64,000 bases of DNA from Calditrichota bacterium (GTDB taxonomy: Bacteria; Zhuqueibacterota; JdFR-76; BMS3Abin05): the NCBI GenBank assembly GCA_013151735.1, contig JAADHR010000017.1:30138-94137 (forward strand), in the 5' to 3' direction. Below, one piece after another: positions 4,154-31,888 of this stretch (its first letter is position 1; every line of letters starts with the position of its first letter). The notes below the pieces were generated by a model. It did no database searches, was not told the DNA's origin, and saw nothing but the letters and a program-made list of their open reading frames with translations. The translations under genes were made by a program, and so were the position numbers.

Positions 4154-5230
4154 ATGAAATTTTTGGATTGGATGGTTTACAATAACAGTGTAAAAACCTG
4201 GATCATTGCCGTCTTGATTTTCCTGGTCAGTTTGGTGGCTTTCAAGATTATCAAGAAATTTGTTATTCGTAAATTGGGCGTATTGGCAAAACGCACCAAA
4301 AGTTCCGCAGACGACATCATTTTATTGTTCCTCGAAAAAACCACCTTCCTGATGCTTGTATTCATGGCCATTTTTTTGGGGTCGCTTGTATTGAGCCTCC
4401 CGCTGACCACCCGGCATATTATTCAGAGCATCGTCATTATTGTTCTTCTCTTTCAGGTGGCTGTTTGGGGGAATGCACTCATTTCATTTGGGCTCGATTT
4501 GTACAAAAAAAAGAGCACTGAAAAGGATCCGTCCGAAGCCACAACCATGGTCGCCATTGCATTTGTGGGGCGGCTCATCCTTTATTCGATCATCATTCTG
4601 CTCTCACTGGATAATCTGGGAATTAACATTACGGCCCTTATTACCGGTTTGGGAATCGGTGGAATTGCTGTGGCTCTGGCTGTTCAAAATGTTTTGAGTG
4701 ATTTGTTTGCTTCACTTTCAATTGTACTGGACAAGCCCTTTGTTTTGGGGGATTTTATTATTATTGACAACTATCTCGGGACCGTGGAGCATATCGGTTT
4801 GAAAACGACCCGGGTTCGCAGTCTTTCCGGCGAACAGCTTATTTTTGCTAATAATGATTTATTAAAAAGCCGTATTCGAAATTACAAGCGAATGTACGAA
4901 AGACGGGTCGTTTTTTCAATCGGGGTGACCTACAACACCCCCTACGAGAAGTTGGCGGCCATTCCGGGAATGATCCGGGAAATTGTTGAATCGAAAGAGC
5001 AGGTCCGTTTTGACCGGGCTCATTTTAAATCCTATGGTGATTATTCTCTCAACTTCGAGACGGTGTACTGGGTAAAAAATCCCGATTACAACGTTTATAT
5101 GGACATTCATCAGGCGATCAATCTGGAAATCTTTCGGAAATTTACGAAAGAAGGAATTGAGTTCGCATTTCCGACGCAGACCGTTTATCTGGAAAAAGAA
5201 AATCAAACAGACCAAAATAAACAGGAATAG
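4154..5230 (+). CDS. Mechanosensitive ion channel, MscS family
   Basis: N-terminal TM helices followed by the MscS beta-domain pattern (GTVEHIGLKTTRVRSLSGEQLIFANNDL). 358 aa. Confidence 0.8.
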   Translation: MKFLDWMVYNNSVKTWIIAVLIFLVSLVAFKIIKKFVIRKLGVLAKRTKSSADDIILLFLEKTTFLMLVFMAIFLGSLVLSLPLTTRHIIQSIVIIVLLFQVAVWGNALISFGLDLYKKKSTEKDPSEATTMVAIAFVGRLILYSIIILLSLDNLGINITALITGLGIGGIAVALAVQNVLSDLFASLSIVLDKPFVLGDFIIIDNYLGTVEHIGLKTTRVRSLSGEQLIFANNDLLKSRIRNYKRMYERRVVFSIGVTYNTPYEKLAAIPGMIREIVESKEQVRFDRAHFKSYGDYSLNFETVYWVKNPDYNVYMDIHQAINLEIFRKFTKEGIEFAFPTQTVYLEKENQTDQNKQE

Positions 5231-5238
5231 GAAACGAC

Positions 5239-6759
5239 ATGTTTGAACAGAAGGATGATCATCCGAGAAGCAAAGTAATTATTGTTTCCAATCGGTTGCC
5301 TATTGCGGTTACAAAAGATGAATCCGGAAATTGGCACGTGGAATCGGGCTCCGGTGGACTCGTAACGGCCCTGGCGCCTGTATTAAAAAATCGCGGCGGT
5401 TTATGGATTGGCTGGCCGGGAATACATGCCGAAGAAGGTCTCAACCTGGATGCCCTTCTAAAAAGTGCAACCCGGGACTCCGGCTATCGGCTTAAACCCG
5501 TTCTGCTTACAGAGGAAGAAATCAAAAAATACTACATGGGTTTTTCGAATGAAGTGCTTTGGCCCCTATTTCACGATTTTGTCCCCTTTTGTAATTTTCG
5601 ACCCGAATACTGGAAATTCTACACGCGGGTGAATAAGAAATTTGCTGAGGTTGTTCAGGCGAACAGCAGCGGCCGGGATTTTATCTGGATTCACGACTAT
5701 CATCTAATTGGTGTCGCAAAAGAGCTTCGCGAAATGGGAGACAAGTCAAAATTGGGCTTCTTTTTGCATATTCCGTTTCCCCCTCTGGACATTTTTTTGA
5801 AACTGCCCTGGCGGTTTCAGATTTTGCGTCTCCTGTTTCAATATGATTTGGTCGGATTTCAAACCCTCAGAGACCGCCGCAACTTCATTCAATGCGTTCG
5901 AACCCTCATGCATGATATGTCTATTCAGGGCAAGGGACAGGTTATTCGAATTAAAACGGAGAATCGTGAGATTCGGGTTGGGGTTTTCCCCATCAGTATT
6001 GATTATCATGAATTTGCAAACCTGGCCAAAACGGAAAGGGTTTCCAAAGAAGCCTGGTACATTCACGAAAATCTGCCGGAAGTTAAAATTATTTTGGGTA
6101 TAGACCGGCTGGATTATTCAAAAGGAATTATTGAAAAATTAAATGCTTATCGGAATGCCCTGCTTCGTTACCCGGAGCTGCAGGGCAATGTTATTTTGGC
6201 TCAGATTCTAGTTCCAAGCCGGCGCAGTATTCCCATGTATGCTGCACTAAAGGAAGAGATCGAACAACTGGTGGGCGAGATTAACGGCCAGTTTACGCGT
6301 TCAGGGTGGATCCCGATTTATTACCGCTTCCAGAGCCTGGGACGTGTGGAATTGGTGGCCCACTATCGCACAGCCGAAATACTGCTGGTTACGCCTCCCA
6401 AGGATGGAATGAATCTGGTTTCCAAGGAATATTGTGCCTCAAATATTGAGGAAAATGGCGTGGTTGTGGTCAGCGAATTCGCAGGTGTGGCGGCTCAGTT
6501 TCAAAAAAGCGCCATATTGATTAATCCTTACGATATTGAAGGTGTGGCCGATGCGATTTATCGTGCCTATTCTATGACTCCAGAAGAGCGTCGAATGCGC
6601 ATGCACAAACTCCGCCAATCCATCCGAAAAACAGATATTTACTGGTGGGTCAATTCCTTTCTATTGGCCGCCATTGCCAAACGTTTGGACAATTTTCCAA
6701 TCGTTGAAGATTATATCCCAATATATGACGACGAAGAAAGTTTTTCCGAAAATGGTTAG
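5239..6759 (+). CDS. otsA: Alpha,alpha-trehalose-phosphate synthase (GT20)
   Basis: IIVSNRLPI...GGLVTAL...LWIGWPG and IWIHDYHL are hallmarks of OtsA/TPS. 506 aa. Confidence 0.9.
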
Positions 6760-7353: not shown

Positions 7354-10300
7354 ATGGATAGTTCATTTGCAAACCGGCGTGTTTTCATTTTATTGGCAGC
7401 CATTGTCTTGCTGTTTCAAATGAATGGAATGGCTGCTCCTTTGGGAGTCGAATCTCAGTCAAAAAATTGGCCACAAATGAGTAAAACCGCACAAAATGTG
7501 TTCGAGAATCAATCAAGCGAGTCTGTGACCGGCACCATTGATACCATTGAGGTGACCGGTGATACAACCGCGTTTCCCCGCGATCCGTCCAAAATTTATG
7601 TTATTGCAGATTATCTACCCAAGATTTCAAAAGAAGTCGCGAATATTAAAGTGCAAAGTTCCGGCTTTTTTAGGATTTTTACCCAGGTTTTAAATGATAA
7701 GGATCAGCATAACGAAAGCTTTTTTCTGCAAATTCGTTATCCGGATAGTTCCCTTATTAATGCATGCGATGCCAACCTGGGACCGTACAAGGTCGTTATT
7801 GATACGACCGCTCCGGATTCAGAAGATTCCCAAATCCGGTACGCAGGTACATTTTATTTCAAAAAGGGAATCAACACAATTATCCTGAATCATTATGCCA
7901 AAATTGCCGTTCGTTTTCCAATATTCTGGAATGGGAATACGGACAGTGTCTCGATTCATTCGAATCCTGAAAGCGTCCATTTTAAACAGGTCATTCTAAT
8001 AAAAGTAACCAATCCCTTTGATGCAGCGTTAACCTATTCCGCAAGTGCAGATACACTCATCGATGTGGGGGGGCAAATGGTGAAAGCCGTGAAAGAGGGC
8101 AGACCGTATTCCTATGTATTAAGGGTGAAAAATGTTGGAAAGGGCAGACTCATTCGGTTTAAAATAAAAGCGCTCATTCCCGATTCCACCACCTTTTTTA
8201 ATATTCGGCCTGCACCGGACACAACCCGAAACGATACCGTATTCTGGCAAATTGATTCTCTTTCTCCCGGGGCGGAGCAAACCATTTTGATTGATGCCAA
8301 GTCTTTTACGAATCTGGTTGTAACCCCTCATCGCCTTTTTAGCCGCGCCTGGGTTGAATCCAAATGCGACACCAATCTTGTCAATAATGAAGATTCCACG
8401 ATTGTTTATGCGTATAGTCCGTGTGATTTTTTTACCCCGGAAGCCCCGCAAATTCAAGCAAGTTCACAGTCCGTTTTTGAGAATCAAAGCCTTTTCATCC
8501 GGGTTCGACTTCCCAAACGGGTGATGGCCTGGGATTTACGGGTCCATTATGCGGACGGAACCGTCGATTCAAGTTACGGGGACGCGTTTATCCAGTCAAC
8601 CGGCAATGTGGCCGACCAGTGGTTGACTGTTCACCCTCGTTTCACGAATACGAAACTGTTAACGGCGGCGGATCACGAACAAATCGTGTTTGAGCTTTTT
8701 TCAACAGATTCATGCGGATATTCGAATGTGGCATACGATACGGTAACCGTAAATCGGGAGAAGTGCGATTTGGCCCTGAACTACACGGCTCAAACGGATA
8801 CGATCGTTCATTATCAGGGGGCGGATGTTCCTGCCGTGATGGAAGGAGAAAGCTATTCCTACAAAATTGATCTCACCAATACCGGGCCGGATACCGCCCG
8901 GAGTGTTCGGCTTTGGGTTATCCGGCCGGATTCTGTAACCTGGAGCAGTTTTGTGCCTTCTCCTCAGGTTTTAAAGTCGGATACGGCTTTCTGGACATTT
9001 GATAAAATGTCTCCCGGAAGTGACAGAGAAATTACATTTCAAGCAACGGTAGCGGACTCTATTCCTGTTTCCCCTATTCAATTGCTGAGCAAAGCCGGAA
9101 TACAGGCCAAAGCGGATACGAATCAGGCGAATAATATCGACAGTACACGGGTTCTGGCGTTTGATCGGTGTACATTTTTTACCCCGGAAGCGCCGCAAAT
9201 CCAGCTTGTGCCGAATTCGGTATTTGAAGGAGACAGCGCAGTGGTCCGCGTGCGCCTTCCCAAACGCGTCACCTGGTGGGACATTCGTGTGTACACGGTG
9301 GACGGCCGCGTCGATTCAAGCTACGGGGATGCGTTTATCCAGTCAACCGGCAATGTGGCCGACCAGTGGTTGACCATCCGGCCGAGTTTCACCAACACAC
9401 AGCTTTTGACAGAGGCAAATCAGGAACCCATTGTTTTTGAATTGCGCACGCAGGATGCTTGCGGACATGCGGGATTGGTGCGCGATACGCTTTTTGTAAA
9501 GAGAATTATTGAAAAATGTGATGTGAGCCTGAAATATACGGTTCATACCGATACCTCTGTGGTCTACCAGGGGAAAACGGTTCCTGCTGTATTGGAGGGC
9601 ACATCCTATTCCTACGAAATTATGGTTAGAAATGCAGGCCCGGACACGGCCCGACATGTCCGGATTTGGGCCACCCAACCCGACTCGGCTACGTTTAACC
9701 ATTTTTCCCCTGCTATTCAATATGTAAATGGCGATACAGTCTTTTGGGCTTTTGATAAACTGGCTCCATCGGAAACCGTTAATCTCACATTTTCCGCTCG
9801 CGTTTCAGATAAACTTCCGGCTGCTCCGGTTGAGCTTTTTAGCAAGGCCATGGTACAGGCGGATGACGATACGAACCAGGCAAACAATGCGGATAGCACC
9901 CAGGTGTTTGGATTCAATTCTTGTGCATTTTTCTCTCCGGAATCTCCTAAAATAGAGGTTTCACCGGCTTTTGTGGAAGTAGGGGATAGCGTTCAGGTAC
10001 GTGTCTGGCTTCCCAAGGGCGTGGTATCCTGGGATGTTGATGTCCGGTTTGTAAATGGAAAAATAGATTCCAGTTACGCCGATGCCTTTATCCGTCGTAC
10101 CGGAAATGTTCCGGATCAATGGATCACGCTCCAGCCGGTATTTACCGAAACACGGCTTATTACACGGGCGCTTCAGGAGGCCATTATTTTTGAGCTTCAC
10201 ACGCAAGATCGTTGCGGGAATCGTCAAACAGCTCAGGCTCGGGTTTTAGTGAAGAGCAGTAATGATTGTCTGTTGGATCGAAATGTTTTCAAGGCAGAAG

Positions 10301-10542
10301 TAGGGACTCCACTCGGAATACGATTTAAATTGAGTTCCAACCGCCGGGCAAGAATTGATCTGTACGATATTTCCGGATACCATATTATGAAAATTGTTGA
10401 AGGCGATTTTTCCGCCGGATGGAACACCTATCGGTGGAATGGCCAAATGCCAGATGGCAAGAAAGTTGGCAGCGGCGTGTATATTATTACGATTAAATCC
10501 GGCAATTTGAACTGTTGGAAAAAAGTAATTCTGGTGAGGTAA
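7354..10542 (+). CDS. Large secreted repeat protein with DUF11-type repeats and a C-terminal T9SS/FlgD-Ig-like sorting domain
   Basis: Signal peptide. Three tandem ~249-aa modules, each carrying a DUF11-like segment (EGESYSYKIDLTNTGPDTARSVRLW; EGTSYSYEIMVRNAGPDTARHVRIW). The C-terminal ~80 aa (RIDLYDISGYHIMKIVEGDFSAGWNTYRWNGQMPDGKKVGSGVYIITIKSGNLNCWKKVILVR) fits the type-A CTD pattern of Por/T9SS cargo. Confidence 0.7.
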   Translation: MDSSFANRRVFILLAAIVLLFQMNGMAAPLGVESQSKNWPQMSKTAQNVFENQSSESVTGTIDTIEVTGDTTAFPRDPSKIYVIADYLPKISKEVANIKVQSSGFFRIFTQVLNDKDQHNESFFLQIRYPDSSLINACDANLGPYKVVIDTTAPDSEDSQIRYAGTFYFKKGINTIILNHYAKIAVRFPIFWNGNTDSVSIHSNPESVHFKQVILIKVTNPFDAALTYSASADTLIDVGGQMVKAVKEGRPYSYVLRVKNVGKGRLIRFKIKALIPDSTTFFNIRPAPDTTRNDTVFWQIDSLSPGAEQTILIDAKSFTNLVVTPHRLFSRAWVESKCDTNLVNNEDSTIVYAYSPCDFFTPEAPQIQASSQSVFENQSLFIRVRLPKRVMAWDLRVHYADGTVDSSYGDAFIQSTGNVADQWLTVHPRFTNTKLLTAADHEQIVFELFSTDSCGYSNVAYDTVTVNREKCDLALNYTAQTDTIVHYQGADVPAVMEGESYSYKIDLTNTGPDTARSVRLWVIRPDSVTWSSFVPSPQVLKSDTAFWTFDKMSPGSDREITFQATVADSIPVSPIQLLSKAGIQAKADTNQANNIDSTRVLAFDRCTFFTPEAPQIQLVPNSVFEGDSAVVRVRLPKRVTWWDIRVYTVDGRVDSSYGDAFIQSTGNVADQWLTIRPSFTNTQLLTEANQEPIVFELRTQDACGHAGLVRDTLFVKRIIEKCDVSLKYTVHTDTSVVYQGKTVPAVLEGTSYSYEIMVRNAGPDTARHVRIWATQPDSATFNHFSPAIQYVNGDTVFWAFDKLAPSETVNLTFSARVSDKLPAAPVELFSKAMVQADDDTNQANNADSTQVFGFNSCAFFSPESPKIEVSPAFVEVGDSVQVRVWLPKGVVSWDVDVRFVNGKIDSSYADAFIRRTGNVPDQWITLQPVFTETRLITRALQEAIIFELHTQDRCGNRQTAQARVLVKSSNDCLLDRNVFKAEVGTPLGIRFKLSSNRRARIDLYDISGYHIMKIVEGDFSAGWNTYRWNGQMPDGKKVGSGVYIITIKSGNLNCWKKVILVR
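8563..8627 (+). repeat. Intragenic near-identical 65-bp segment, copy 1 (encodes DSSYGDAFIQSTGNVADQWLT)
   Basis: 63/65 nt identical to 9310..9374, exactly 747 bp (249 codons) downstream. The flanking sequence is much more diverged. Confidence 0.85.
9310..9374 (+). repeat. Intragenic near-identical 65-bp segment, copy 2
   Basis: See copy 1. A third, more diverged copy lies at about 10057-10120. Confidence 0.85.
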
Positions 10543-10543
10543 C

Positions 10544-13141
10544 ATGAAACGAGTGAATAGAATTACCAACGAGAAAACATCTGTTTTCAAAATTGCTTTA
10601 GCGATCGTTTTTGCGCTTGTGGTCAGTGCGATTGGAGGAAATTCCGTTGCACAGGTTCGTTCCGGTGTGGCCTTTTTAAAGATATTGCCAGGTGCTCGGC
10701 AGCAATCCATGTCCGGGAGTCTGACGGGGCTTTTGGATGAAGATTATGCCTATTATGCCAATCCGGCGGCCACAGGATTTGCGCGTGAGTGGCAGTATTC
10801 TTTAACCTACACGAAATGGATTACGGATATCTACAACATTTCATTAAATTATGGGCGGGGTTTGTCGCTTCCTTGGAACAACAGATCGCGCATCATGTTC
10901 GGGGTGAATTACCAGGGCGTAAAAGAATTTGACAGTTCCCGAGGCGCAACTCCACCGGCATCTGCCAGTGATTTGCTGGCCCTGGTCAGTGTGGGGTCGT
11001 CCTTTCCAAGATTCTCAAGGAATGTTTCATTTGGTATTAACGCGAAATACTTTCGTAGCAATTTGGCGCAGTACACCGCTAATGCCGTGATTTTGGACAT
11101 GGGGGTTTTGTACCGGACGCACCGATTTCATTTCCTGAATTGGAAAAATGGTTTGTTTAAATATGGTATTTTTTCTGCAGGATTGGCCGTGACCCAGTTG
11201 GGAAATTCCATGCGGTTTATCGATGTAGCCACACCGCTGCCGCGGACGTACCGTGGCGGTGTGGCCTTTTACACCGGGACTCATAACGGATTCCAGATTC
11301 AACTTTCGCTGGATGTTCGGAAAATCCGCGATGAAAAAACATCATTGAGCCTGGGTTCTGAAATTTCCCTTGGTAAGAGAATTTCCATCCGCGGCGGTTA
11401 CAATTTTCAAAATGCCCTTCTTAGTAAATATTCTTTCGGAATGGGAATTCGGCTGGACGATTACAGCACGGCTTTGAAAGATTTTCTGCCGGGGCGCAAA
11501 CACGCACTCAAATTTGATATTGCCGCCCTTCAAAATATGGATTTCTTCTCGAATGCTTCTCGGATCAGTGTAACCGATTATCCGATTGGTCCCGAAAAAT
11601 TTGAGTATCAAACACCCGGGAAGATTGAAACCTACACCACCGAAGACAGCGTTACCCTTCGCTGGCAAGTAACTCGCGACCCCGATCTTTTTGATGAGGT
11701 GCAGTACGGATTTTATCTGACAAAAGACAGCCTGAGTCTGGCTAATTATCTGAAAAAATTGGATCAAAAAAAGGTTGATCTCTCCCAAAAACCAGAAGAC
11801 GCCGTTGTGTTTGCGCTGACGCCCTCTGTGAAAATTCATGAAGGTAAGGAGCGGCGCAAATTTCGTGTGGAGTTGTCACCCCTGCCAATCGGAAATTATT
11901 TTTGGTCGGTTTGGGCAAGAGATGACGATGATCACATTCGGTTTGCAGTAAAATCGGGACAAAAAATTCAACATTTTAGAGTGATAGCCAAAGAGATTCC
12001 CGTTCCTCCGGACACAACCGCTGACCTGATGCTGGCCAAAACGGCTGCTCTTCCTCCGCTGGATGTAAATATTCATTTTCCGTTTGATTCGGCTCGATTG
12101 ACTCCCCGCGCAAAAGAAATGCTAAACATTCTTGGGATGGCTCTCAATTCCAAGGAGCTCCGATCCACGCACGTGGAACTGGGGGGACACACCGACAAAC
12201 GCGGATCTGCCGCCTACAATTTAAGGCTGTCTCAGCGGCGTGTCGATCGTGCAAAGGATTATTTGATTGCCGTACCGGCTGTGGATTCGTCCCGGTTAAC
12301 GGCCATCGGATACGGCGAAAGCCGGCCTCTTATAAAGAATGCCACAACGGAGGCAGAATTTGCGATTAACCGCAGGGTGGAAATTAAGCTGTCCCGTCAA
12401 CAGGGATCCGAAAATAGCGAAAAAGTGACCCGTCTTCCGGTTCCCAAAACGATTATGGCCGGAAAAGAATTTTCCTATAAAATTAATGTGAAGAATAAGG
12501 GGCCCCGGCCAGCCCGATCCATTTCGATCAAAGATAAGCTGCCCTCAGGGATAAAAATTGTAAGCACCTCTATTCAACCGGACTCTCTTTCGGGTAATCT
12601 GCTGTTCTGGAAGTTTGATTCCCTGGCTACGGGAGATTCTCTCGTTATCGTACTCAAGGCCAAAGCACCGGATTTCGTAGATAGAAATCCCAAACCATTC
12701 TTAAACAAGAGCAATGTGACGGCCATCAACGATACCTCCTTTTTTAATAATGTGGACAGCGTCTCTGTTCTTGTAATCGGAACACCCGACACAGCCGTGT
12801 ATTTCGGATTTGACAGTTCCAATGTCAGGCCGCAGGCCCGGAAGCTCTTGGAACAGTGGGCCAATTTTATTGAAGCCTCTCCCCGGATCCCAATCTGCAT
12901 TGAGGGACATACCGACAGCATCGGTTCCGACGCCTATAACATGCGTCTCTCCATTCGGCGGGCTAAGTCAGTGAAAAAATGGCTCATAACCTGGCTCAGA
13001 CAACACGCGGCTTCAGAAGTAAAAGAGGTCCATATTTACACCATTGGATATGGGGAAAGACGGCCCATTGCTACGAATAAAACAGAAGAAGGCCGGCAAA
13101 AAAATCGGAGAATTGTGATTCATCCGAGGCCGTGTAAATAG
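10544..13141 (+). CDS. Outer-membrane protein: PorV/FadL-like beta-barrel N-terminus fused to two OmpA-like peptidoglycan-binding domains and a DUF11 repeat
   Basis: N-terminus LPGARQQSMSGSLTGLLDEDYAYYANPAATGF resembles the GAR..MGGA...D.SA..NPAGL box of PorV/FadL-type barrels. Two OmpA_C domains (FDSARLTP...GHTDKRGSAAYNLRLSQRRV and FDSSNVRP...GHTDSIGSDAYNMRLSIRRA) are separated by a DUF11-like segment (KEFSYKINVKNKGPRPARSIS). Starts 1 bp after the upstream cargo gene. Confidence 0.7.
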   Translation: MKRVNRITNEKTSVFKIALAIVFALVVSAIGGNSVAQVRSGVAFLKILPGARQQSMSGSLTGLLDEDYAYYANPAATGFAREWQYSLTYTKWITDIYNISLNYGRGLSLPWNNRSRIMFGVNYQGVKEFDSSRGATPPASASDLLALVSVGSSFPRFSRNVSFGINAKYFRSNLAQYTANAVILDMGVLYRTHRFHFLNWKNGLFKYGIFSAGLAVTQLGNSMRFIDVATPLPRTYRGGVAFYTGTHNGFQIQLSLDVRKIRDEKTSLSLGSEISLGKRISIRGGYNFQNALLSKYSFGMGIRLDDYSTALKDFLPGRKHALKFDIAALQNMDFFSNASRISVTDYPIGPEKFEYQTPGKIETYTTEDSVTLRWQVTRDPDLFDEVQYGFYLTKDSLSLANYLKKLDQKKVDLSQKPEDAVVFALTPSVKIHEGKERRKFRVELSPLPIGNYFWSVWARDDDDHIRFAVKSGQKIQHFRVIAKEIPVPPDTTADLMLAKTAALPPLDVNIHFPFDSARLTPRAKEMLNILGMALNSKELRSTHVELGGHTDKRGSAAYNLRLSQRRVDRAKDYLIAVPAVDSSRLTAIGYGESRPLIKNATTEAEFAINRRVEIKLSRQQGSENSEKVTRLPVPKTIMAGKEFSYKINVKNKGPRPARSISIKDKLPSGIKIVSTSIQPDSLSGNLLFWKFDSLATGDSLVIVLKAKAPDFVDRNPKPFLNKSNVTAINDTSFFNNVDSVSVLVIGTPDTAVYFGFDSSNVRPQARKLLEQWANFIEASPRIPICIEGHTDSIGSDAYNMRLSIRRAKSVKKWLITWLRQHAASEVKEVHIYTIGYGERRPIATNKTEEGRQKNRRIVIHPRPCK

Positions 13142-13224: not shown

Positions 13225-13252
13225 GGTCATCCCATCCGGGATGGCCTTTTTT
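13225..13252 (+). terminator. Rho-independent terminator
   Basis: GGTCATCCC-atcc-GGGATGGCC forms a 9-bp stem (one G-U pair) followed by TTTTTT. Lies 85 bp downstream of the OmpA-fusion gene. Confidence 0.7.
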
Positions 13253-14994: not shown

Positions 14995-16842
14995 ATGCCC
15001 CGCATCTCAGGAAAAAGTATTCGAAGAATTGCTATTCTTGTCACGATTCTTCTCTTTTCCCTCATGTTTCAGAATGGGCGGCTTCTGGCAGGAAACAAAA
15101 CGTATGCTATCACCCGTGTGGCCATTCAGGCCCGGCTGCAATCCGATGGCAGTATGAGCGTAACAGAGACGCGCGCATTCAAATTTAGAGGCCGTTTCCA
15201 CTTTGCCTACCGCACGTTTCCCTTAAATGGACAGGTGAAATTTGCAGATTTTTTGATATCCGAGGGAAGTCAGTCCTACCGTTTCTCTCAATCGAAAAAA
15301 CCGGGCACCTACCAGATTATTCAGAAAAAAAATCAAACGGAAATTCGATGGTTTTTTAAAGCCAAAAATCAAACGCGGACTTTTACGATTCACTATCGGG
15401 TTGAGAATGCGGTTCGACGGTATGAGGATGCGGCCGTTTTGTATTATCAATTTATCAGTAAAGATTGGGGAATCCCCCAGCACCGCATTGAGATTTCTCT
15501 GATTCCACCCGTTACATTAACCCGATCGGAAATAAAAGAATGGGTGCACGGGCCGCTTTGGGCCTCGTCTCACATTGGCGTCGACGGGACGATTGATATC
15601 CAATGTGTCCGGCTGCCCAAAAAGTCGTATCTGGAAGTGCGAGCCTTGTACCCGCCGGAAATATTTCCTGAATTGCCGCTAATTCACAAGCGGGTGAAAG
15701 ACGAGATTCTGCAAGAAGAAGCAAAATGGGCAGCGCAGGCCAACCAGGCACGGCAGGAGGTCATCCGGAAAGAGAAAAATCGACGCCAGAGAAAAGCGTC
15801 CGGAAGATGGGTGATCATCGGTCTGAGTTTGTTCGGATTGCTGCTGTGGTGGCGTATCTACCAAAAATATGGAAAGCGTCCCGGGGTTATCCACAAAAAC
15901 TACATGTCCTCCGATATCCCGGAGCGGTTGCCCCCGGCTTTTGTGGGCTATCTGATGAACAATCGGCAAATTTACGGGAATGCCCTGATGGGAACCATTC
16001 TGAGGTTTGCCCAAATGGGTATTTTGACTTTTTACGAGGATGAAGACGAAAAAAAATCCATCTGGGGAAAGACCCGGAAAAAACCACACTATCGTCTGGA
16101 ATTGAACCGAAAGGCTTTCGAAGAGCAAAAGGACACGTTATTGGATTTTGAGAGGCATCTGATTTCCTTCCTGTTTGATGAGTTGGCGGGCGGAAATTCA
16201 TCAATCGATCTGGAATCCATCCGAAAGAATCGAAATAAATTCTTAAAATTTTTCCGAAACTGGAAAAAAGATGTTCAAAACGCTGCAAAAGCCAAAAACT
16301 GGTTCGACGAAACCAGCAGACGCGGAATGATCCTTTCTGTTGTGCTTGCTGTCGGATTCTTTGCTTTGACGGTTCCCGCTGCATTTCTTGTGGAGGAGTG
16401 GGCTGTTGTTTTGGGAGTGACGGGTCTTCTTATTCTTATTTTGTCTTTTTTCATTCCTCACCGGACAAAAGAGGGCGAAGCTCTGGCACAGCAGTGGAAA
16501 GCACTGAAAAAATACCTTCAAAAGACACAATTCTTGCAAGGCGATCACTCCCAGCTGCTCGATACAATAAACGATTATTTGATTTATTCCGTTACGCTGA
16601 GCGTGCCCCGAAAATCCATTCAAAAATTAGTGGAACAAATTCCGGAAGAAACCTATCAGAATTATATTGGATGGTATATTTACACCGGCCGCGGAACCTT
16701 TTCCTCGGAGGCGTTTAGTCACTCATTTTTAACTGCTATTTCGGCAACCACCTCTGCATTAAGTTCGGCTTCGGGAGCAGGCGGAGGAGCTTCTGCCGGA
16801 GGAGGCGGCGGTGCAGCCAGCGGCGGCGGGGGAGCGGGATAG
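14995..16842 (+). CDS. DUF2207 family membrane protein
   Basis: N-terminal signal/TM, an extracytoplasmic domain, a TM pair, and a C-terminal Gly-rich tail (SASGAGGGASAGGGGGAASGGGGAG) typical of DUF2207 proteins. Confidence 0.6.
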   Translation: MPRISGKSIRRIAILVTILLFSLMFQNGRLLAGNKTYAITRVAIQARLQSDGSMSVTETRAFKFRGRFHFAYRTFPLNGQVKFADFLISEGSQSYRFSQSKKPGTYQIIQKKNQTEIRWFFKAKNQTRTFTIHYRVENAVRRYEDAAVLYYQFISKDWGIPQHRIEISLIPPVTLTRSEIKEWVHGPLWASSHIGVDGTIDIQCVRLPKKSYLEVRALYPPEIFPELPLIHKRVKDEILQEEAKWAAQANQARQEVIRKEKNRRQRKASGRWVIIGLSLFGLLLWWRIYQKYGKRPGVIHKNYMSSDIPERLPPAFVGYLMNNRQIYGNALMGTILRFAQMGILTFYEDEDEKKSIWGKTRKKPHYRLELNRKAFEEQKDTLLDFERHLISFLFDELAGGNSSIDLESIRKNRNKFLKFFRNWKKDVQNAAKAKNWFDETSRRGMILSVVLAVGFFALTVPAAFLVEEWAVVLGVTGLLILILSFFIPHRTKEGEALAQQWKALKKYLQKTQFLQGDHSQLLDTINDYLIYSVTLSVPRKSIQKLVEQIPEETYQNYIGWYIYTGRGTFSSEAFSHSFLTAISATTSALSSASGAGGGASAGGGGGAASGGGGAG

Positions 16843-16927
16843 CCGGTTGATTCGATTCGGATGGGATGATTTATAAAATGGAATGATTCCGTTTGGAATC
16901 GAGCAAAAAGATTGGAGATTCTGCCTA

Positions 16928-17905
16928 ATGATTGGTTTGGTCGGTCTTGGAAATATGGGATCAGCCATTGCACATGTAATGGCTTCAAACGGACACGCTG
17001 TGCTTGGATGGGAACACAACGCCCGTGTGGTTGAGGAAATCAACCGTAACCACACGAACACCCCATTTTTACCTGGTATTACATTGGATCCCAACTTAAA
17101 AGCGACCGGTGATCTGAAGCGGGTGTTTGAGACGTGTCCGGTTATTTTTGTGGCCATTCCATCGATCTTTTTTCAATCGGTGCTAAAACCCTTTTCAAAC
17201 AAGACCACCGGAAAGGTGTTTGTAGATTTGACCAAAGGGATTGACCGGGAGACGCTCTTAACCTCATTTCAAATGCTGCAGATTCTTTTTCCCGGCAACC
17301 AACATGTGATGCTGTCCGGCCCGTCTATTGCCAATGAGTTTTCCCGCGGTCTGCCAACCCTGGTTATGCTTGCCGGCGAAGACAAAAGCGGTCTTTTACA
17401 AATTGCCCGAATTTTGGAAAATGATTATTTTCGGGTTCGTTTTTCGGACGACACCATTGGCGTCGAATTGGGTGGAATCCTGAAGAATATTTATGCCATT
17501 GGTCTGGGAATTTTTGACGGACTGGCCATTGACAGTGTGAATTTCCGATCCTCTTACTTGACGGTTGCTCTGGAGGAAATTTCTCAAATAGGGGTGGCTC
17601 TGGGGGCTCGAAAGGAAACCTTCCTGTATCTTGCAGGGATGGGCGATCTGCTGGCGACATCCTTGAGCCAGCACAGCCACAATCGACGGATGGGCGAATT
17701 TCTGGCGCAGGGGCTTTCTCTCAAGAAAATCGAACAGAAAATGGGAGTTTTGCCTGAGGGATTTAATACGCTCAAGATGACGCTGTATCTTGCAGAAAAG
17801 CACCATTGTTCGATGCCCCTGGCGAGAGGGTTGTGGGATGTTATTCACGAGCGCCTGAGCGCCGAAACCTTTGTTCAGATGTTTATTAAGGACTTTGTCG
17901 AATAG
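16928..17905 (+). CDS. gpsA: NAD(P)H-dependent glycerol-3-phosphate dehydrogenase
   Basis: Rossmann motif GLGNMGSAIAHVMASNGH and a GpsA-like C-terminal domain. Start placed at the internal Met, which has a GGAGA RBS. Confidence 0.85.
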   Translation: MIGLVGLGNMGSAIAHVMASNGHAVLGWEHNARVVEEINRNHTNTPFLPGITLDPNLKATGDLKRVFETCPVIFVAIPSIFFQSVLKPFSNKTTGKVFVDLTKGIDRETLLTSFQMLQILFPGNQHVMLSGPSIANEFSRGLPTLVMLAGEDKSGLLQIARILENDYFRVRFSDDTIGVELGGILKNIYAIGLGIFDGLAIDSVNFRSSYLTVALEEISQIGVALGARKETFLYLAGMGDLLATSLSQHSHNRRMGEFLAQGLSLKKIEQKMGVLPEGFNTLKMTLYLAEKHHCSMPLARGLWDVIHERLSAETFVQMFIKDFVE

Positions 17906-17919
17906 ATTAAGGAGCGGAT

Positions 17920-19431
17920 ATGAAGAAAAAGGTGGTGTTGGCCATAGATTTGGGGACGACCGGGAATCGGGTAATTGCCTTTTCAAAAGAGGGGGACATT
18001 CTGGCCAAGTCCTATTATGAGTTTCCTCAGATTTTTCCGAAGCCCGGCTGGGTTGAGCACAATCCGATGGACATCTGGATGACCACTCACAAGGCTCTTC
18101 TGGATGTGGTGAGCTTGGTTGGATCAGAAAATATCGAGGCTATTGGCATTACGAATCAACGAGAGACAACCATTTTGTGGGATAGGAAAACCGGCAAGCC
18201 GATTTACAACGCCATTGTGTGGCAGTGCCGGCGGACGGCGTCGATGTGCGACGCCTTGCAGGAGCACGCAGAGTCGATCAAACAAAAAACGGGTTTGTTT
18301 CTGGACCCGTATTTTTCCGCAACCAAAATTAAATGGATTCTGGAAAATGTTCCGGGCGCCCGGGGAAAGGCGGTTTCCGGCGACCTGGCTTTTGGAACGG
18401 TCGACACCTGGATCCTCTGGAATCTGACGGGCGGAAAACAGCACGCCACCGAACCCTCAAATGCCTCCCGAACCCTGTGCTACAACATTCATTCACTTGA
18501 ATTTGATGAAGATTTGCTCCGCATTTTTGATATTCCGGCAGCGATTCTGCCAGAGGTGAAGGAAAGCGGGGCGATTTTTGGCCACACCACAAAAGAACTT
18601 TTGGGGCGAGAGATTCCCGTTGCCGGAATTCTGGGTGACCAGCAGGCGGCGTTTTTTGCCCACGGAGGCTGGCAGGAGGGCATCATTAAAAACACCTACG
18701 GCACGGGGCTTTTTGTGGTGACGTCCACGGGAAGCGACATCCCCAATTCCGGGAAATTGGTGAACACCATTGCCTGGCGAATCAATGGGAAAACAACCTA
18801 CGCGCTGGAGGGGAGTGTTTTCATCGGAGGAGCGGCCATTCAATGGCTGCGGGACGGCCTGGGACTTCTGAAATCAGCAGCGGAGTCCGAACCACTGGCG
18901 ACGTCTGTATCCGACACCGGAGGGGTGTATTTTGTACCGGCCCTGGCGGGATTGGGTGCGCCCTACTGGGATCCATCCGCCCGAGGAACCCTTCTGGGAA
19001 TTACCCGCGGAACGGGACCCGCCCATATTGTGCGGGCAGCATTGGAGGCACTTGCGTATCAGACCCGGGATGTGATTGAGGAAATGCAGCACGTGGTTGG
19101 CGGCCGGCCCTTTAAAAAGCTGGCTGTGGATGGAGGCGCGGCCAAAAATAATTTTCTCATGCAATTTCAGGCAGATATTTTGCCCATGCAGGTGGAACGG
19201 CCGGTCGTGACCGAAACCACAGCTTTTGGTGCGGCAGGCCTGGCGGGAATGACCCTCGGTTTTTGGTCGCAAGAGGAATTTCTGACGGTTCGTAAAATTG
19301 ACCGGACGTTCGATCCGGCCATGGACCGCCAAACCCGGGAAGCCTTTTATCGCAAATGGAAGGAGGCTGTCCGGCGGGCCTTGAATTGGGCCAATGCAGC
19401 GGAGGACCGTGCCTCCGGAAATGAAGGGTGA
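17920..19431 (+). CDS. glpK: Glycerol kinase
   Basis: VLAIDLGTTGNRVIAF, GTGLFVV and the FGGY sugar-kinase architecture. 503 aa. Confidence 0.9.
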   Translation: MKKKVVLAIDLGTTGNRVIAFSKEGDILAKSYYEFPQIFPKPGWVEHNPMDIWMTTHKALLDVVSLVGSENIEAIGITNQRETTILWDRKTGKPIYNAIVWQCRRTASMCDALQEHAESIKQKTGLFLDPYFSATKIKWILENVPGARGKAVSGDLAFGTVDTWILWNLTGGKQHATEPSNASRTLCYNIHSLEFDEDLLRIFDIPAAILPEVKESGAIFGHTTKELLGREIPVAGILGDQQAAFFAHGGWQEGIIKNTYGTGLFVVTSTGSDIPNSGKLVNTIAWRINGKTTYALEGSVFIGGAAIQWLRDGLGLLKSAAESEPLATSVSDTGGVYFVPALAGLGAPYWDPSARGTLLGITRGTGPAHIVRAALEALAYQTRDVIEEMQHVVGGRPFKKLAVDGGAAKNNFLMQFQADILPMQVERPVVTETTAFGAAGLAGMTLGFWSQEEFLTVRKIDRTFDPAMDRQTREAFYRKWKEAVRRALNWANAAEDRASGNEG

Positions 19432-29793: not shown

Positions 29794-30480
29794 TTATAAA
29801 AATGTGCCCAAACCGTTCTGTTTTGTTTTTCGCCACATGCCTGCAATATCCCGCTGGTACGGGTGATTGAAAGTACCCGGCCAGGACTCAATGACCAGCG
29901 AAATTTTTTGAAAGTCACCCAATTCAAATAAACTTTCCAACAGGCCCAGAACGGCCCCCCAGTGGGTCGGGTGCAAATGAAGAATTTTCCTGAAATCCGA
30001 AATGGCACCGCGGAAATCTCCCATTTCCTTCCTGACCCATCCCCTGTAATAGAAATATCTTGTTTTGGGCTGGACCAGTCGGATGAGCTGATTGAGAAGT
30101 TTGCTTGCCTGCGTGAGAAAATAGGTGCGGTTCTCAGGAACATGGGGCCAGATTTGCGAATAGCGTAAAAACACAACGGCCAGGGCCAGCTGGTACCCCG
30201 GATAATCGGGTTCCCGACGCATTTTTTGGCGAATTTTGTAGATTCGTTTTCGAAACTGGACATCCAGTGTGTCCAATTCACCCTTTGCCGCAATTTTAAA
30301 TGTCAGATTGGAATGTCTGGAGAGCCGATGCAATTCCTGGATCGCCAGCGCATAAAAGGGCCGCCGCAATTGATGAATACCCTGAACCCTTTGCTCAGAA
30401 TTTTTGCTGAGAAGCAGATCCGTAGTTACGCCGATTGGATCCGAAAGATTAGCTTGAGTAAACGGTTTTTCCTGGGGCAT
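29794..30480 (-). CDS. Hypothetical protein, helical repeat (TPR-like)
   Basis: 228-aa ORF at the end of the minus-strand operon, overlapping the upstream gene's 3' end. No recognisable catalytic motifs. Confidence 0.45.
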   Translation of the reverse strand: MPQEKPFTQANLSDPIGVTTDLLLSKNSEQRVQGIHQLRRPFYALAIQELHRLSRHSNLTFKIAAKGELDTLDVQFRKRIYKIRQKMRREPDYPGYQLALAVVFLRYSQIWPHVPENRTYFLTQASKLLNQLIRLVQPKTRYFYYRGWVRKEMGDFRGAISDFRKILHLHPTHWGAVLGLLESLFELGDFQKISLVIESWPGTFNHPYQRDIAGMWRKTKQNGLGTFL

Positions 30481-31888
30481 GGCGGCGACTCATTTTTTCA
30501 AGAATTTTTGCATGGATTTGCAAAACCTCCAAAACCTGCTTCATCATGACCTTGGAGGATTCGTAATCGGGTTCGAATACGCTGAACCCGTAATCAAATT
30601 TTCGTTTTTCATTGTCTGGGCCGGCAAGATAATTCAGTCTCTTGTTTAAACGATTTAAAATACCGGACATCTCGTAAAAGCCCGTAAAGGGAAGAATTAT
30701 CCAGATCAGGCTGCGCGGCTTGTCCACATAAATCTGATCCAGTTCCCGGATTTCAGTCTGAATCGATTGGGTTAATTCGGCAACGGAAAGGTCAGGCACG
30801 CCCGTCTGTGTCCGAATGGCGATGAGTGAGAAGGATGACTGGAAACGCCTGGCTCGCCGAAACTCGCTTTCGACAAGTGAGAGAAAATCGTAGGGAGACT
30901 GAATAATCTGCTGCCAGAGGGGTCGTTTCCTGTCTCTGGATTCCTGCACCTCCCGGGTAACAGCCAGGGCCAGTTCAGCCATTTTTCTAATGTAATTCAG
31001 GGCCTGTAAGGTCCGCTGGTGCAGAAGCGCAAAAGGCATTTTATCCACGCTGATCAGGTACTTTGCTTGACCCGCCTCGCGGATCGGAATGTAAATGAGC
31101 CCCCGGTGTGACGCCTTTTTCCACTCGGAAAAAAGGGCGTCATTTTTGGATATGTCGGCTATGGAAAAGATTCTCTCCCCTTCTGAAATTCTTTTTAGAA
31201 AGGGGTTGGATTCCAGGGAAATAGCCTTCTTCTGGCCCGCCTCTTTTGCTTTTTCCGGAATCAGGGTGTGATCCTCTACCCGAAAGATTACCAATTCCTG
31301 CGCCCGGGTGATTCGGCTTACACTCTGGTAAAGGGCCCGGGTAAAATCCGGGCGTGATGTCAGAAACGATCGAAATATCTTGTACACCAGCGAAAAGGTG
31401 TATTCCTGGTTTCGAATCAACCGTTCCAGATTTTCAGATTTGATCCGCTGCTTTTGCAGTTCGCGGTGAAGCACCTCGGAACGTTTTTCTGACCGGGTCT
31501 GTTTAGTCTTCAGTGAAATTTGTTTGTCTTTTGTCTGGGTGTAATAAATGAAGAGGAGACCGAAAATGGCCAACATATCCAGAGTTGGCGGAACGGCATA
31601 CCGCAGCCAGCTGGTAAGCGGACCGTTTGGAAAATAAAAGAAAAAATAGTGAGAAATCAAAAAGGCTGGAACTGCGGCCAATGCCGCCCAGAAAAATTTG
31701 TCCCTTTTAAGAAAAAGCGCTCCATAGACCATCCAAACCATGTAGAGATGATAAGAACCCAAAACCCTCCAGAAATGATCCGGTGTTCTAATGAGTGAAA
31801 TCAACACAACGGACAGAGAGAATCCCGTGAGGAGAATCAAAATCTCCATCTGTGTGACAGATTTTTTTGGGGGTGCACTTGTTTTCAT
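30449..31888 (-). CDS. Membrane protein with a cytoplasmic GAF-like region and a degenerate (non-catalytic) GGDEF-like domain
   Basis: N-terminal TM helices. The C-terminal region (RFQSSFSLIAIRTQ...RSLIWIILPFTG) aligns to the GGDEF fold but lacks the GG[DE]EF motif. Confidence 0.5.
   Translation of the reverse strand: MKTSAPPKKSVTQMEILILLTGFSLSVVLISLIRTPDHFWRVLGSYHLYMVWMVYGALFLKRDKFFWAALAAVPAFLISHYFFFYFPNGPLTSWLRYAVPPTLDMLAIFGLLFIYYTQTKDKQISLKTKQTRSEKRSEVLHRELQKQRIKSENLERLIRNQEYTFSLVYKIFRSFLTSRPDFTRALYQSVSRITRAQELVIFRVEDHTLIPEKAKEAGQKKAISLESNPFLKRISEGERIFSIADISKNDALFSEWKKASHRGLIYIPIREAGQAKYLISVDKMPFALLHQRTLQALNYIRKMAELALAVTREVQESRDRKRPLWQQIIQSPYDFLSLVESEFRRARRFQSSFSLIAIRTQTGVPDLSVAELTQSIQTEIRELDQIYVDKPRSLIWIILPFTGFYEMSGILNRLNKRLNYLAGPDNEKRKFDYGFSVFEPDYESSKVMMKQVLEVLQIHAKILEKMSRRHAPGKTVYSS

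Follow-up and report, generated by a model that had tools for sequence, protein, structure and literature searches.

The 64-kb window analyzed here, a stretch of DNA from a Calditrichota metagenome-assembled genome (MAG), contains a two-gene locus in which a protein ending in a C-terminal sorting domain (CTD) of the kind known from type IX secretion systems (T9SS) is followed directly by an outer-membrane barrel fused to OmpA-like domains. All features of this locus lie on the forward (+) strand. The upstream gene, hereafter the cargo gene (7354-10542, 1062 amino acids), is deposited at NCBI as NOY76391.1, 'hypothetical protein', and the open reading frame (ORF) of the fusion (10544-13141, 865 amino acids) as NOY76392.1, 'PorV/PorQ family protein'. 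The junction between them (10540-10546) consists of the TAA stop codon of the cargo gene at 10540-10542, a single base C at 10543 and the ATG starting at 10544, which is precisely the one-base spacing reported in the first-pass annotation of this DNA. The purine-rich sequence GGTGAGG is located just 5' of the junction, at 10533-10539.

The fusion protein begins with a signal peptide (residues 1-36; 10544-10651), in which a hydrophobic core precedes the conserved motif AQ-[VI]-RSG and the structural model places a helix at residues 11-28. Cleavage is predicted, from the sequence, before the conserved Gln37. The A-Q pair at this site (10646-10660) is conserved in the fusion and its relatives and would expose an N-terminal Gln, which is reminiscent of the 'Q-rule' reported for Bacteroidetes (PMC5837995).

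The following region, a PorV/PorQ-family outer-membrane barrel (residues 37-347; 10652-11584), comprises a conserved segment at residues 40-82 and then 14 beta-strands. The NCBIfam profile of the PorV/PorQ family, NF033709, recognizes it with 115.6 bits over residues 40-308 (112 bits for the full protein), above the cutoff of 90. The equivalog model of PorQ (NF033711) gives 69.4 bits against a cutoff of 220, over the N-terminal half only, and is still the best equivalog match of the barrel; that of PorV (NF033710) gives 49.2 bits against 250. The Pfam scan of the barrel, including the PorV family PF19572, returns zero matches even at E <= 10, and for this reason the family assignment rests on NCBIfam and on structure. 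The PorP/SprF profile likewise gives no match (Pfam at E <= 10, NCBIfam at E <= 1). The AlphaFold2 model, built from 58 homologues, has a mean predicted local distance difference test (pLDDT) score of 87.5 and contains 14 strands within residues 83-347. Its best Foldseek matches among solved structures are the PorV chains of the Flavobacterium johnsoniae translocon (8gl6_F, E 1e-14; 6h3i_F, E 7e-13), and PorV is also the sole significant match in a sequence search of the PDB (E 2.8e-5). As modeled, the barrel has a 14-strand FadL-type fold that comes closest to that of PorV. The N-terminal barrel of the first-pass annotation is therefore retained as a PorV/PorQ-family barrel, with a length of about 310 rather than about 450 amino acids, the remainder belonging to a separate Ig-like domain; of its description as 'PorV/FadL-like', the PorV half corresponds to the closest structure and the FadL half is valid at the level of the fold.

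In outer-membrane beta-barrels, an even number of strands puts a C-terminal extension in the periplasm. With 14 strands the barrel ends on the periplasmic side, and the entire C-terminal extension of the fusion is therefore expected to be periplasmic, which is consistent with its peptidoglycan-binding domains. The first domain of this extension (residues 350-481; 11591-11986) is a family-specific Ig-like beta-sandwich with one inserted helix, for which neither Pfam nor NCBIfam gives any match. Modeled alone, it reaches a pLDDT of 83.8, and a search of the PDB returns generic Ig folds only, at E values of about 1e-4 and without a functional lead. It is the best-conserved portion of the fusion family outside the barrel, with W374, the DPDL-x-D motif at 379-384, G450, Y452, W454, D460 and H464 invariant across the family; the invariant acidic residues and His could form a metal or ligand site.

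Beyond this domain lie a first OmpA-like peptidoglycan-binding domain (residues 495-618; 12026-12397), identified by Pfam, model and alignment; an Ig-like spacer of the DUF11 family, since renamed CLIPPER (residues 633-745; 12440-12778; PF01345, 54.3 bits over residues 633-742 against a cutoff of 24.6); and a second OmpA-like domain (residues 751-860; 12794-13123), which in the window protein carries the canonical GHTD...YN..LS..RA motif. The Pfam OmpA profile (PF00691) scores 141 bits over two stretches corresponding to the two OmpA-like domains, with the conserved Asp and Arg present, so that both belong to this family. Taken singly, the OmpA and CLIPPER domains are of ordinary type. Across 41 family members the first OmpA-like domain shows no variation at G548, D551, R566 and R610, the Asp and Arg being those predicted to bind peptidoglycan. 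Conservation was judged from Pfam counts and alignment invariants, because about half of the family escaped a strict regular expression written for the OmpA binding motif. The second domain is dispensable in relatives, being truncated or degenerate and devoid of the binding motif in some that are about 50% identical, and replaced by LysM in others; in the A2 alignment this lability is visible in sequences P0005, P0008, P0010, P0020 and P0022. The earlier description of two OmpA domains separated by a DUF11-like segment thus applies to the window protein and not to all of its relatives. Two side observations concern this region. Many close homologues (45-64% identical) keep a Cys within ...PICIEGHTD... 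of the second OmpA-like domain and another in the C-terminal ...RPCK, and the CLIPPER domain of the fusion is 28-38% identical to CLIPPER domains of the upstream cargos at related loci.

The cargo protein has a signal-peptide-like N-terminus and an N-terminal region of about 220 amino acids without family match, and it has no match among PDB sequences. Its central part is built of three repeats of about 250 amino acids each (8017-10245, boundaries approximate), which were taken from motif spacing, since they did not show up when the cargo was aligned with itself by BLAST: the motif SSYGDAFI recurs at residues 406, 655 and 906, with a period of 249-251 amino acids. Each repeat consists of one DUF11/CLIPPER Ig-like domain and a conserved segment of about 115 amino acids without family match; the Pfam DUF11 profile scores 114 bits over three stretches. 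The protein ends with the CTD (residues 965-1062, 98 amino acids; 10246-10539), whose subclass consensus reads C-x-LDRNVF-x-P ... LDLYDISGYH ... AGWN ... WNG ... VGSGVYIIT ... CWKKVIIVR.

Standard models identify this CTD as a sorting-type domain that is atypical and marginal. It scores 24.4-26.4 bits with TIGR04183 (T9SS type A; cutoff 23) and 31.6 bits with Pfam FlgD_ig (cutoff 27), remains below the cutoff of 27 with Por_Secre_tail (PF18962, 21.8 bits), and reaches 13.6 bits with CHU_C (type B, PF13585; cutoff 27), so that by sequence it is closer to type A/FlgD_ig than to type B. Faint matches to the PorZ and PorU CTD models of NCBIfam are also observed. The view of the upstream protein as a T9SS-type cargo accordingly holds as far as TIGR04183 is concerned, by a narrow margin and without support from Por_Secre_tail. 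As a side observation, two Cys of the CTD, one before LDRNVF and the other in CWKK, are both present in 20 sequences and both absent in 17, with one alone in only 5; this distribution suggests a disulfide stapling the first and last CTD strands.

The association of the two genes is conserved. In each of six relatives with gene tables, the gene directly upstream of the fusion encodes a large protein that is built of repeats and ends in a FlgD_ig-type tail, and the flanking genes are unrelated. In the set of loci selected by the fusion, which comprises the window and 48 further loci (49 in total, about 45 of them distinct), a same-strand ORF with the subclass CTD is located directly upstream of the fusion in 49 of 49. 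The distance from the cargo end to the fusion start is between -31 and +15 nucleotides in nearly all loci, including fourteen 4-nucleotide ATGA overlaps; the exceptions are the larger apparent gaps at L011 and L046, and at three loci the start-codon call was unsuccessful. The reciprocal search, a metagenome scan with the CTD alone, yields 11 loci, in all of which the barrel fusion lies directly downstream of the CTD stop codon. The recurrence of cargo-barrel pairs in related genomes, proposed earlier as a check, is thus borne out from both directions.

Complete cargos range from 530 to 1914 amino acids (the longest, of 2317, runs off its contig end). Despite these differences in length, all share the 98-residue CTD, which reaches the last residue (...CWKKVIIVR). 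Paired CTDs score 85-146 bits with a hidden Markov model (HMM) of the subclass, the window cargo reaching 145.7 bits and four paired CTDs left out of the HMM building 116-132 bits. Other CTD proteins on the same contigs, several of which are enzymes at or above the TIGR04183 cutoff, score 16-48 bits. By these sequence scores the paired CTDs are a distinct subclass. Furthermore, the identity matrices of barrels and CTDs are correlated, with a Mantel r of 0.69 that none of 2000 permutations attained, the correlation being confounded by shared phylogeny. One KSB1 MAG (GCA_029261995.1) contains two modules whose barrels are 38% identical and whose CTDs are 36% identical, i.e., both have diverged. 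Cargo types were counted from the locus-derived cargos, a CTD profile search of a 5.8-billion-protein set having given only 9 short fragments. DUF11/CLIPPER is present in 29 of 29 complete cargos analyzed with Pfam; many carry in addition DUF7619, CLIPPER_2, DUF7927, CARDB or VWA, and one carries cadherin-like repeats.

The fusion itself belongs to a sizeable family. A word-indexed search gives 62 relatives. When only the barrel is used as the query of an exhaustive HMMER search, 97 representatives of clusters at 50% identity match at E < 1e-30; nearly all of them measure 850-1450 amino acids and have an N-terminal barrel, and barrels that stand alone, of about 300 amino acids, appear only at far weaker scores. 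Among 41 family members taken from genome loci, Pfam detects OmpA in 40, CARDB in 23, DUF11 in 17 and LysM, an alternative wall-binding module, in 3. Going by their labels, the carriers belong to Calditrichota, among them a Caldithrix MAG (L021), the Calditrichia chromosome OZ245730.1, or to candidate division KSB1, with some bins bearing legacy or uncertain labels; OY843751.1 is a further carrier. Literature searches retrieve no paper on the fusion, on the CTD subclass, or on T9SS in Calditrichota (Calditrichaeota, Caldithrix) or KSB1. Reviews confine T9SS to the FCB group (PMC12421860), in which NCBI taxonomy does not include Calditrichota. No printed description of the fusion was thus found, in line with the first-pass annotation, which did not recognize it as a described architecture; it is not unique, being one of about 100 clusters at 50% identity that already carry the automatic name 'PorV/PorQ family protein'.

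Several observations were made on barrels outside this family. Remoter PorV-like barrels with OmpA, fn3, TPR or CARDB extensions are found (P0159, P0176, P0180, P0188, P0192, P0195, P0150), some of the remoter barrels also matching the uncharacterized Pfam family UPF0164; periplasmic extensions are thus a wider theme of this barrel type. Standalone NF033709 barrels are also located directly downstream, on the same strand, of proteins of 720-973 amino acids with weak T9SS-type CTDs (L050:644-3943, L051:3862-7376, L053:4799-7987 and L054:2010-5123; NF033709 144-188 bits, the L051 barrel being unscored), in Ignavibacteria, Melioribacteraceae, Bacteroidota MAGs and one unclassified bin. The order of CTD protein followed by PorV-like barrel may be general and not confined to OmpA fusions. 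Finally, at 5 kb from the module of L004 (L004:11309-17186), a PorQ-like barrel without fusion partner (187.7 bits against a cutoff of 220) is located near genes for a DUF3078 protein and for a type A CTD protein of 1092 residues; this might be part of the attachment machinery of that host.

The domain architecture, the strict gene pairing, the pair-specific CTD subclass, the parallel divergence of barrels and CTDs and the unvarying binding residues of OmpA1 form the basis of the interpretation preferred here, to which a probability of roughly 0.6 is assigned: the fusion is probably a dedicated surface anchor, which combines in one polypeptide the holding of a CTD, as by PorP/SprF or PorQ, with wall binding as by PorE. 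The two genes are accordingly proposed to constitute a self-contained surface-display module. The cargo would be a long stalk of CLIPPER-type Ig domains resembling a fibrillar adhesin; CLIPPER is known as a stalk domain of fibrillar adhesins and is sometimes isopeptide-stabilized (PMC12617251). Its signal peptide would take it to the periplasm, and the CTD would direct type IX passage over the outer membrane. There the CTD would be captured and kept, uncleaved, by the cognate barrel encoded by the next gene, bypassing the general PorV shuttle and the sortase, in the manner in which PorQ keeps PorZ, PorV keeps PorU and PorP/SprF keeps type B CTD proteins. The periplasmic extension of the barrel (Ig-like, OmpA, CLIPPER, OmpA) would bind peptidoglycan, as PorE does in trans for PorP. 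The outcome would be an unbroken chain, immobile and load-bearing, that links the external fiber with the cell wall by way of the CTD, the barrel and the Ig spacers. The role of dedicated surface-attachment partner suggested for the fusion in the first-pass annotation is in this way supported by the barrel family, the conserved pairing and the CTD subclass, with binding and anchoring themselves inferred; each of the three outcomes that would have spoken against it, a failed barrel prediction, an unrelated family and a lack of conserved pairing, turned out the other way. A broader proposal, considered less likely than not, is that these modules attach T9SS cargo to the surface in a third way and with a CTD class of their own, distinct from both classical type A and type B, each CLIPPER fiber being held non-covalently by a private, wall-fastened PorV-like barrel.

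A number of points weigh against this interpretation. Direct binding of the CTD to the barrel is inferred from genomic proxies, namely the adjacency at all fusion-selected and CTD-selected loci, the CTD subclass and the Mantel correlation with its phylogenetic confounding. The equivalog models do not support orthology of the barrel to PorV, PorQ or PorP. The CTD is barely above the cutoff of the type A model and lies below that of Por_Secre_tail. The placement of a CLIPPER domain, a name that refers to 'Extracellular Region', in the periplasmic portion of the fusion is unusual. Among the ORFs scanned in the window, no T9SS core component (SprA/Sov, PorKLMN) is found; the indirect signs of T9SS come from related contigs, which hold enzymes with type A CTDs and a PorQ-like barrel encoded on its own. 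Most genomes showed one module in a scan with two peptide patterns, which would be compatible with a single-copy housekeeping role.

A first alternative is that the barrel acts as a cargo-specific export accessory docking at the translocon, the cargo being afterwards released or passed to the sortase and lipopolysaccharide (LPS), and the OmpA domains merely fixing the docking site. SprF is needed for SprB secretion, an analogous case, and PorV-family barrels have been proposed to collect substrates from SprA/Sov at the same site as PorQ or PorP (PMC9143113, PMC10947112); strict cognate pairing and a CTD subclass would fit this role as well as anchoring. However, a barrel stapled to peptidoglycan would be unable to shuttle, and the invariant wall-binding residues together with the adhesin-like stalk cargos fit a load-bearing tether better. 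Because conservation of the CTD reaches the very last residue across the family, it also suggests a retained functional domain and not a discarded signal. The export role is thus considered unlikely.

It is quite unlikely, too, that the pair belongs to the core T9SS machinery of these phyla, either as a PorQ-PorZ-like attachment subcomplex or as a PorP-PorE-like tether of the PorK/N ring, with the upstream protein as a machine part bearing a CTD. Such a role would agree with PorQ being the best equivalog of the barrel (69.4 bits), with the faint PorZ and PorU matches of the CTD and with the single locus in most genomes scanned; PorU and PorZ are themselves CTD-bearing components held by PorV and PorQ (PMC10947112), and PorP-PorE has been proposed as a ring-to-wall tether (PMC9143113). 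In contrast, the passengers vary in length (at least 530-1914 amino acids) and in content (CLIPPER, VWA, cadherin), none of them matches PorZ or PorU outside the CTD, no porKLMN-like neighbors occur at the six loci with gene tables, one MAG contains two diverged modules, and in L004 a separate standalone PorQ-like barrel is located 5 kb from the fusion. A general envelope tether of the OmpA/Pal kind, set on a FadL-type barrel that is possibly a small-molecule channel and adjacent to the cargo gene through shared envelope function only, is very improbable, as it would leave the private CTD subclass unexplained.

The dedicated surface anchor preferred here has its closest counterparts in the PorE-PorP-PG1035 complex of Porphyromonas gingivalis and the porP-like/porE-like pairs of F. 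johnsoniae, described together with the SprF-SprB complex in a study whose authors propose wall anchoring of non-mobile cargo through PorP-PorE-like pairs (PMC9143113). The systems share a 14-strand FadL-type barrel that holds a CTD protein, an OmpA_C-type wall link, and clustered genes for cargo, barrel and wall anchor, the contact and the wall link in the present case being read from the genes. In contrast to PorP-PorE, a single polypeptide here comprises barrel and wall anchor, the family of the barrel is PorV/PorQ and not PorP/SprF, the CTD is closer to type A/FlgD_ig than to type B, the TPR and beta-propeller domains of PorE are absent, and the hosts are Calditrichota and KSB1. With PorQ-PorZ and PorV-PorU the likeness lies in a PorV/PorQ-family barrel permanently holding one surface protein by an uncleaved CTD, an arrangement described for those systems and expected here; the PorQ-PorZ complex, with its CTD uncleaved, assembles independently of PorU and PorV (PMC10947112). 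The equivalog scores are nevertheless far under the cutoffs (69 vs 220; 49 vs 250), an OmpA extension in the periplasm is absent from PorQ and PorV, and the partner here is a variable CLIPPER-repeat stalk rather than a beta-propeller LPS carrier (PorZ) or a sortase (PorU).

In F. johnsoniae, the gene of the huge repetitive adhesin SprB adjoins that of its cognate barrel SprF, which is needed for SprB secretion and surface attachment (PMC9143113). SprF, however, resembles PorP and lacks a wall anchor, and SprB moves on the cell surface, whereas an adhesin held by a peptidoglycan-bound barrel would be expected to be immobile. The fibrillar adhesin B9T28_05395 of Acinetobacter silvestris (PMC12617251, PDB 9ifr) combines a CLIPPER stalk and an OmpA-like anchor in one protein without a PorV-like barrel or a T9SS CTD; here, the stalk is part of a secreted protein and the OmpA anchor part of a membrane barrel. 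The tethers OmpA, Pal and OprF share the C-terminal OmpA-like domains with the canonical GHTD...R motif, and differ from the fusion in that the latter has a 14-strand PorV-type barrel instead of the 8-strand OmpA type, a pair of OmpA domains with Ig spacers between them, and a cognate partner with a CTD.

The surface retention of T9SS cargo without an LPS link is only partly understood. In the current model, worked out in two species of Bacteroidota, PorE links to the wall a PorP-like barrel that holds the CTD; a single-chain form occurring in nature would provide independent evolutionary support for this barrel-plus-wall-anchor model and extend it past type B CTDs. The many co-diverging barrel-CTD pairs are a resource for predicting the recognition interface. 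If the broader proposal of a third attachment mode is true, the modules would be a Gram-negative counterpart of wall-anchored Gram-positive adhesins, the natural fusion would be a 'Rosetta stone' for PorP-PorE type interaction, and with about 100 co-varying pairs the surface by which PorV-family barrels bind CTDs could be mapped. The findings also suggest that fibrillar adhesins anchored to the wall occur on the surface of these sediment and hydrothermal bacteria, which have been little studied, and they offer an annotation rule for proteins labeled 'hypothetical' or 'FlgD': a subclass CTD adjoining a barrel-OmpA fusion.

Around the module, a weak terminator-like hairpin followed by a T-run is present at 13232-13244, about 90 nucleotides past the fusion stop codon, where the end of a two-gene operon would be expected; the promoter and terminator scan as a whole, which included this hairpin, did not exceed chance. 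An ORF of 479 amino acids on the reverse strand (30449-31888) has no Pfam match at E <= 0.001. The genes surrounding the module (4154-6759 and 14995-19431) are unrelated to secretion and encode an MscS channel, trehalose-6-phosphate synthase, an aldo-keto reductase, a DUF2207 membrane protein, GpsA and GlpK. Farther along, at 39789-60706, lies a cluster of large PAS/GAF histidine kinases together with a sigma-54 activator.

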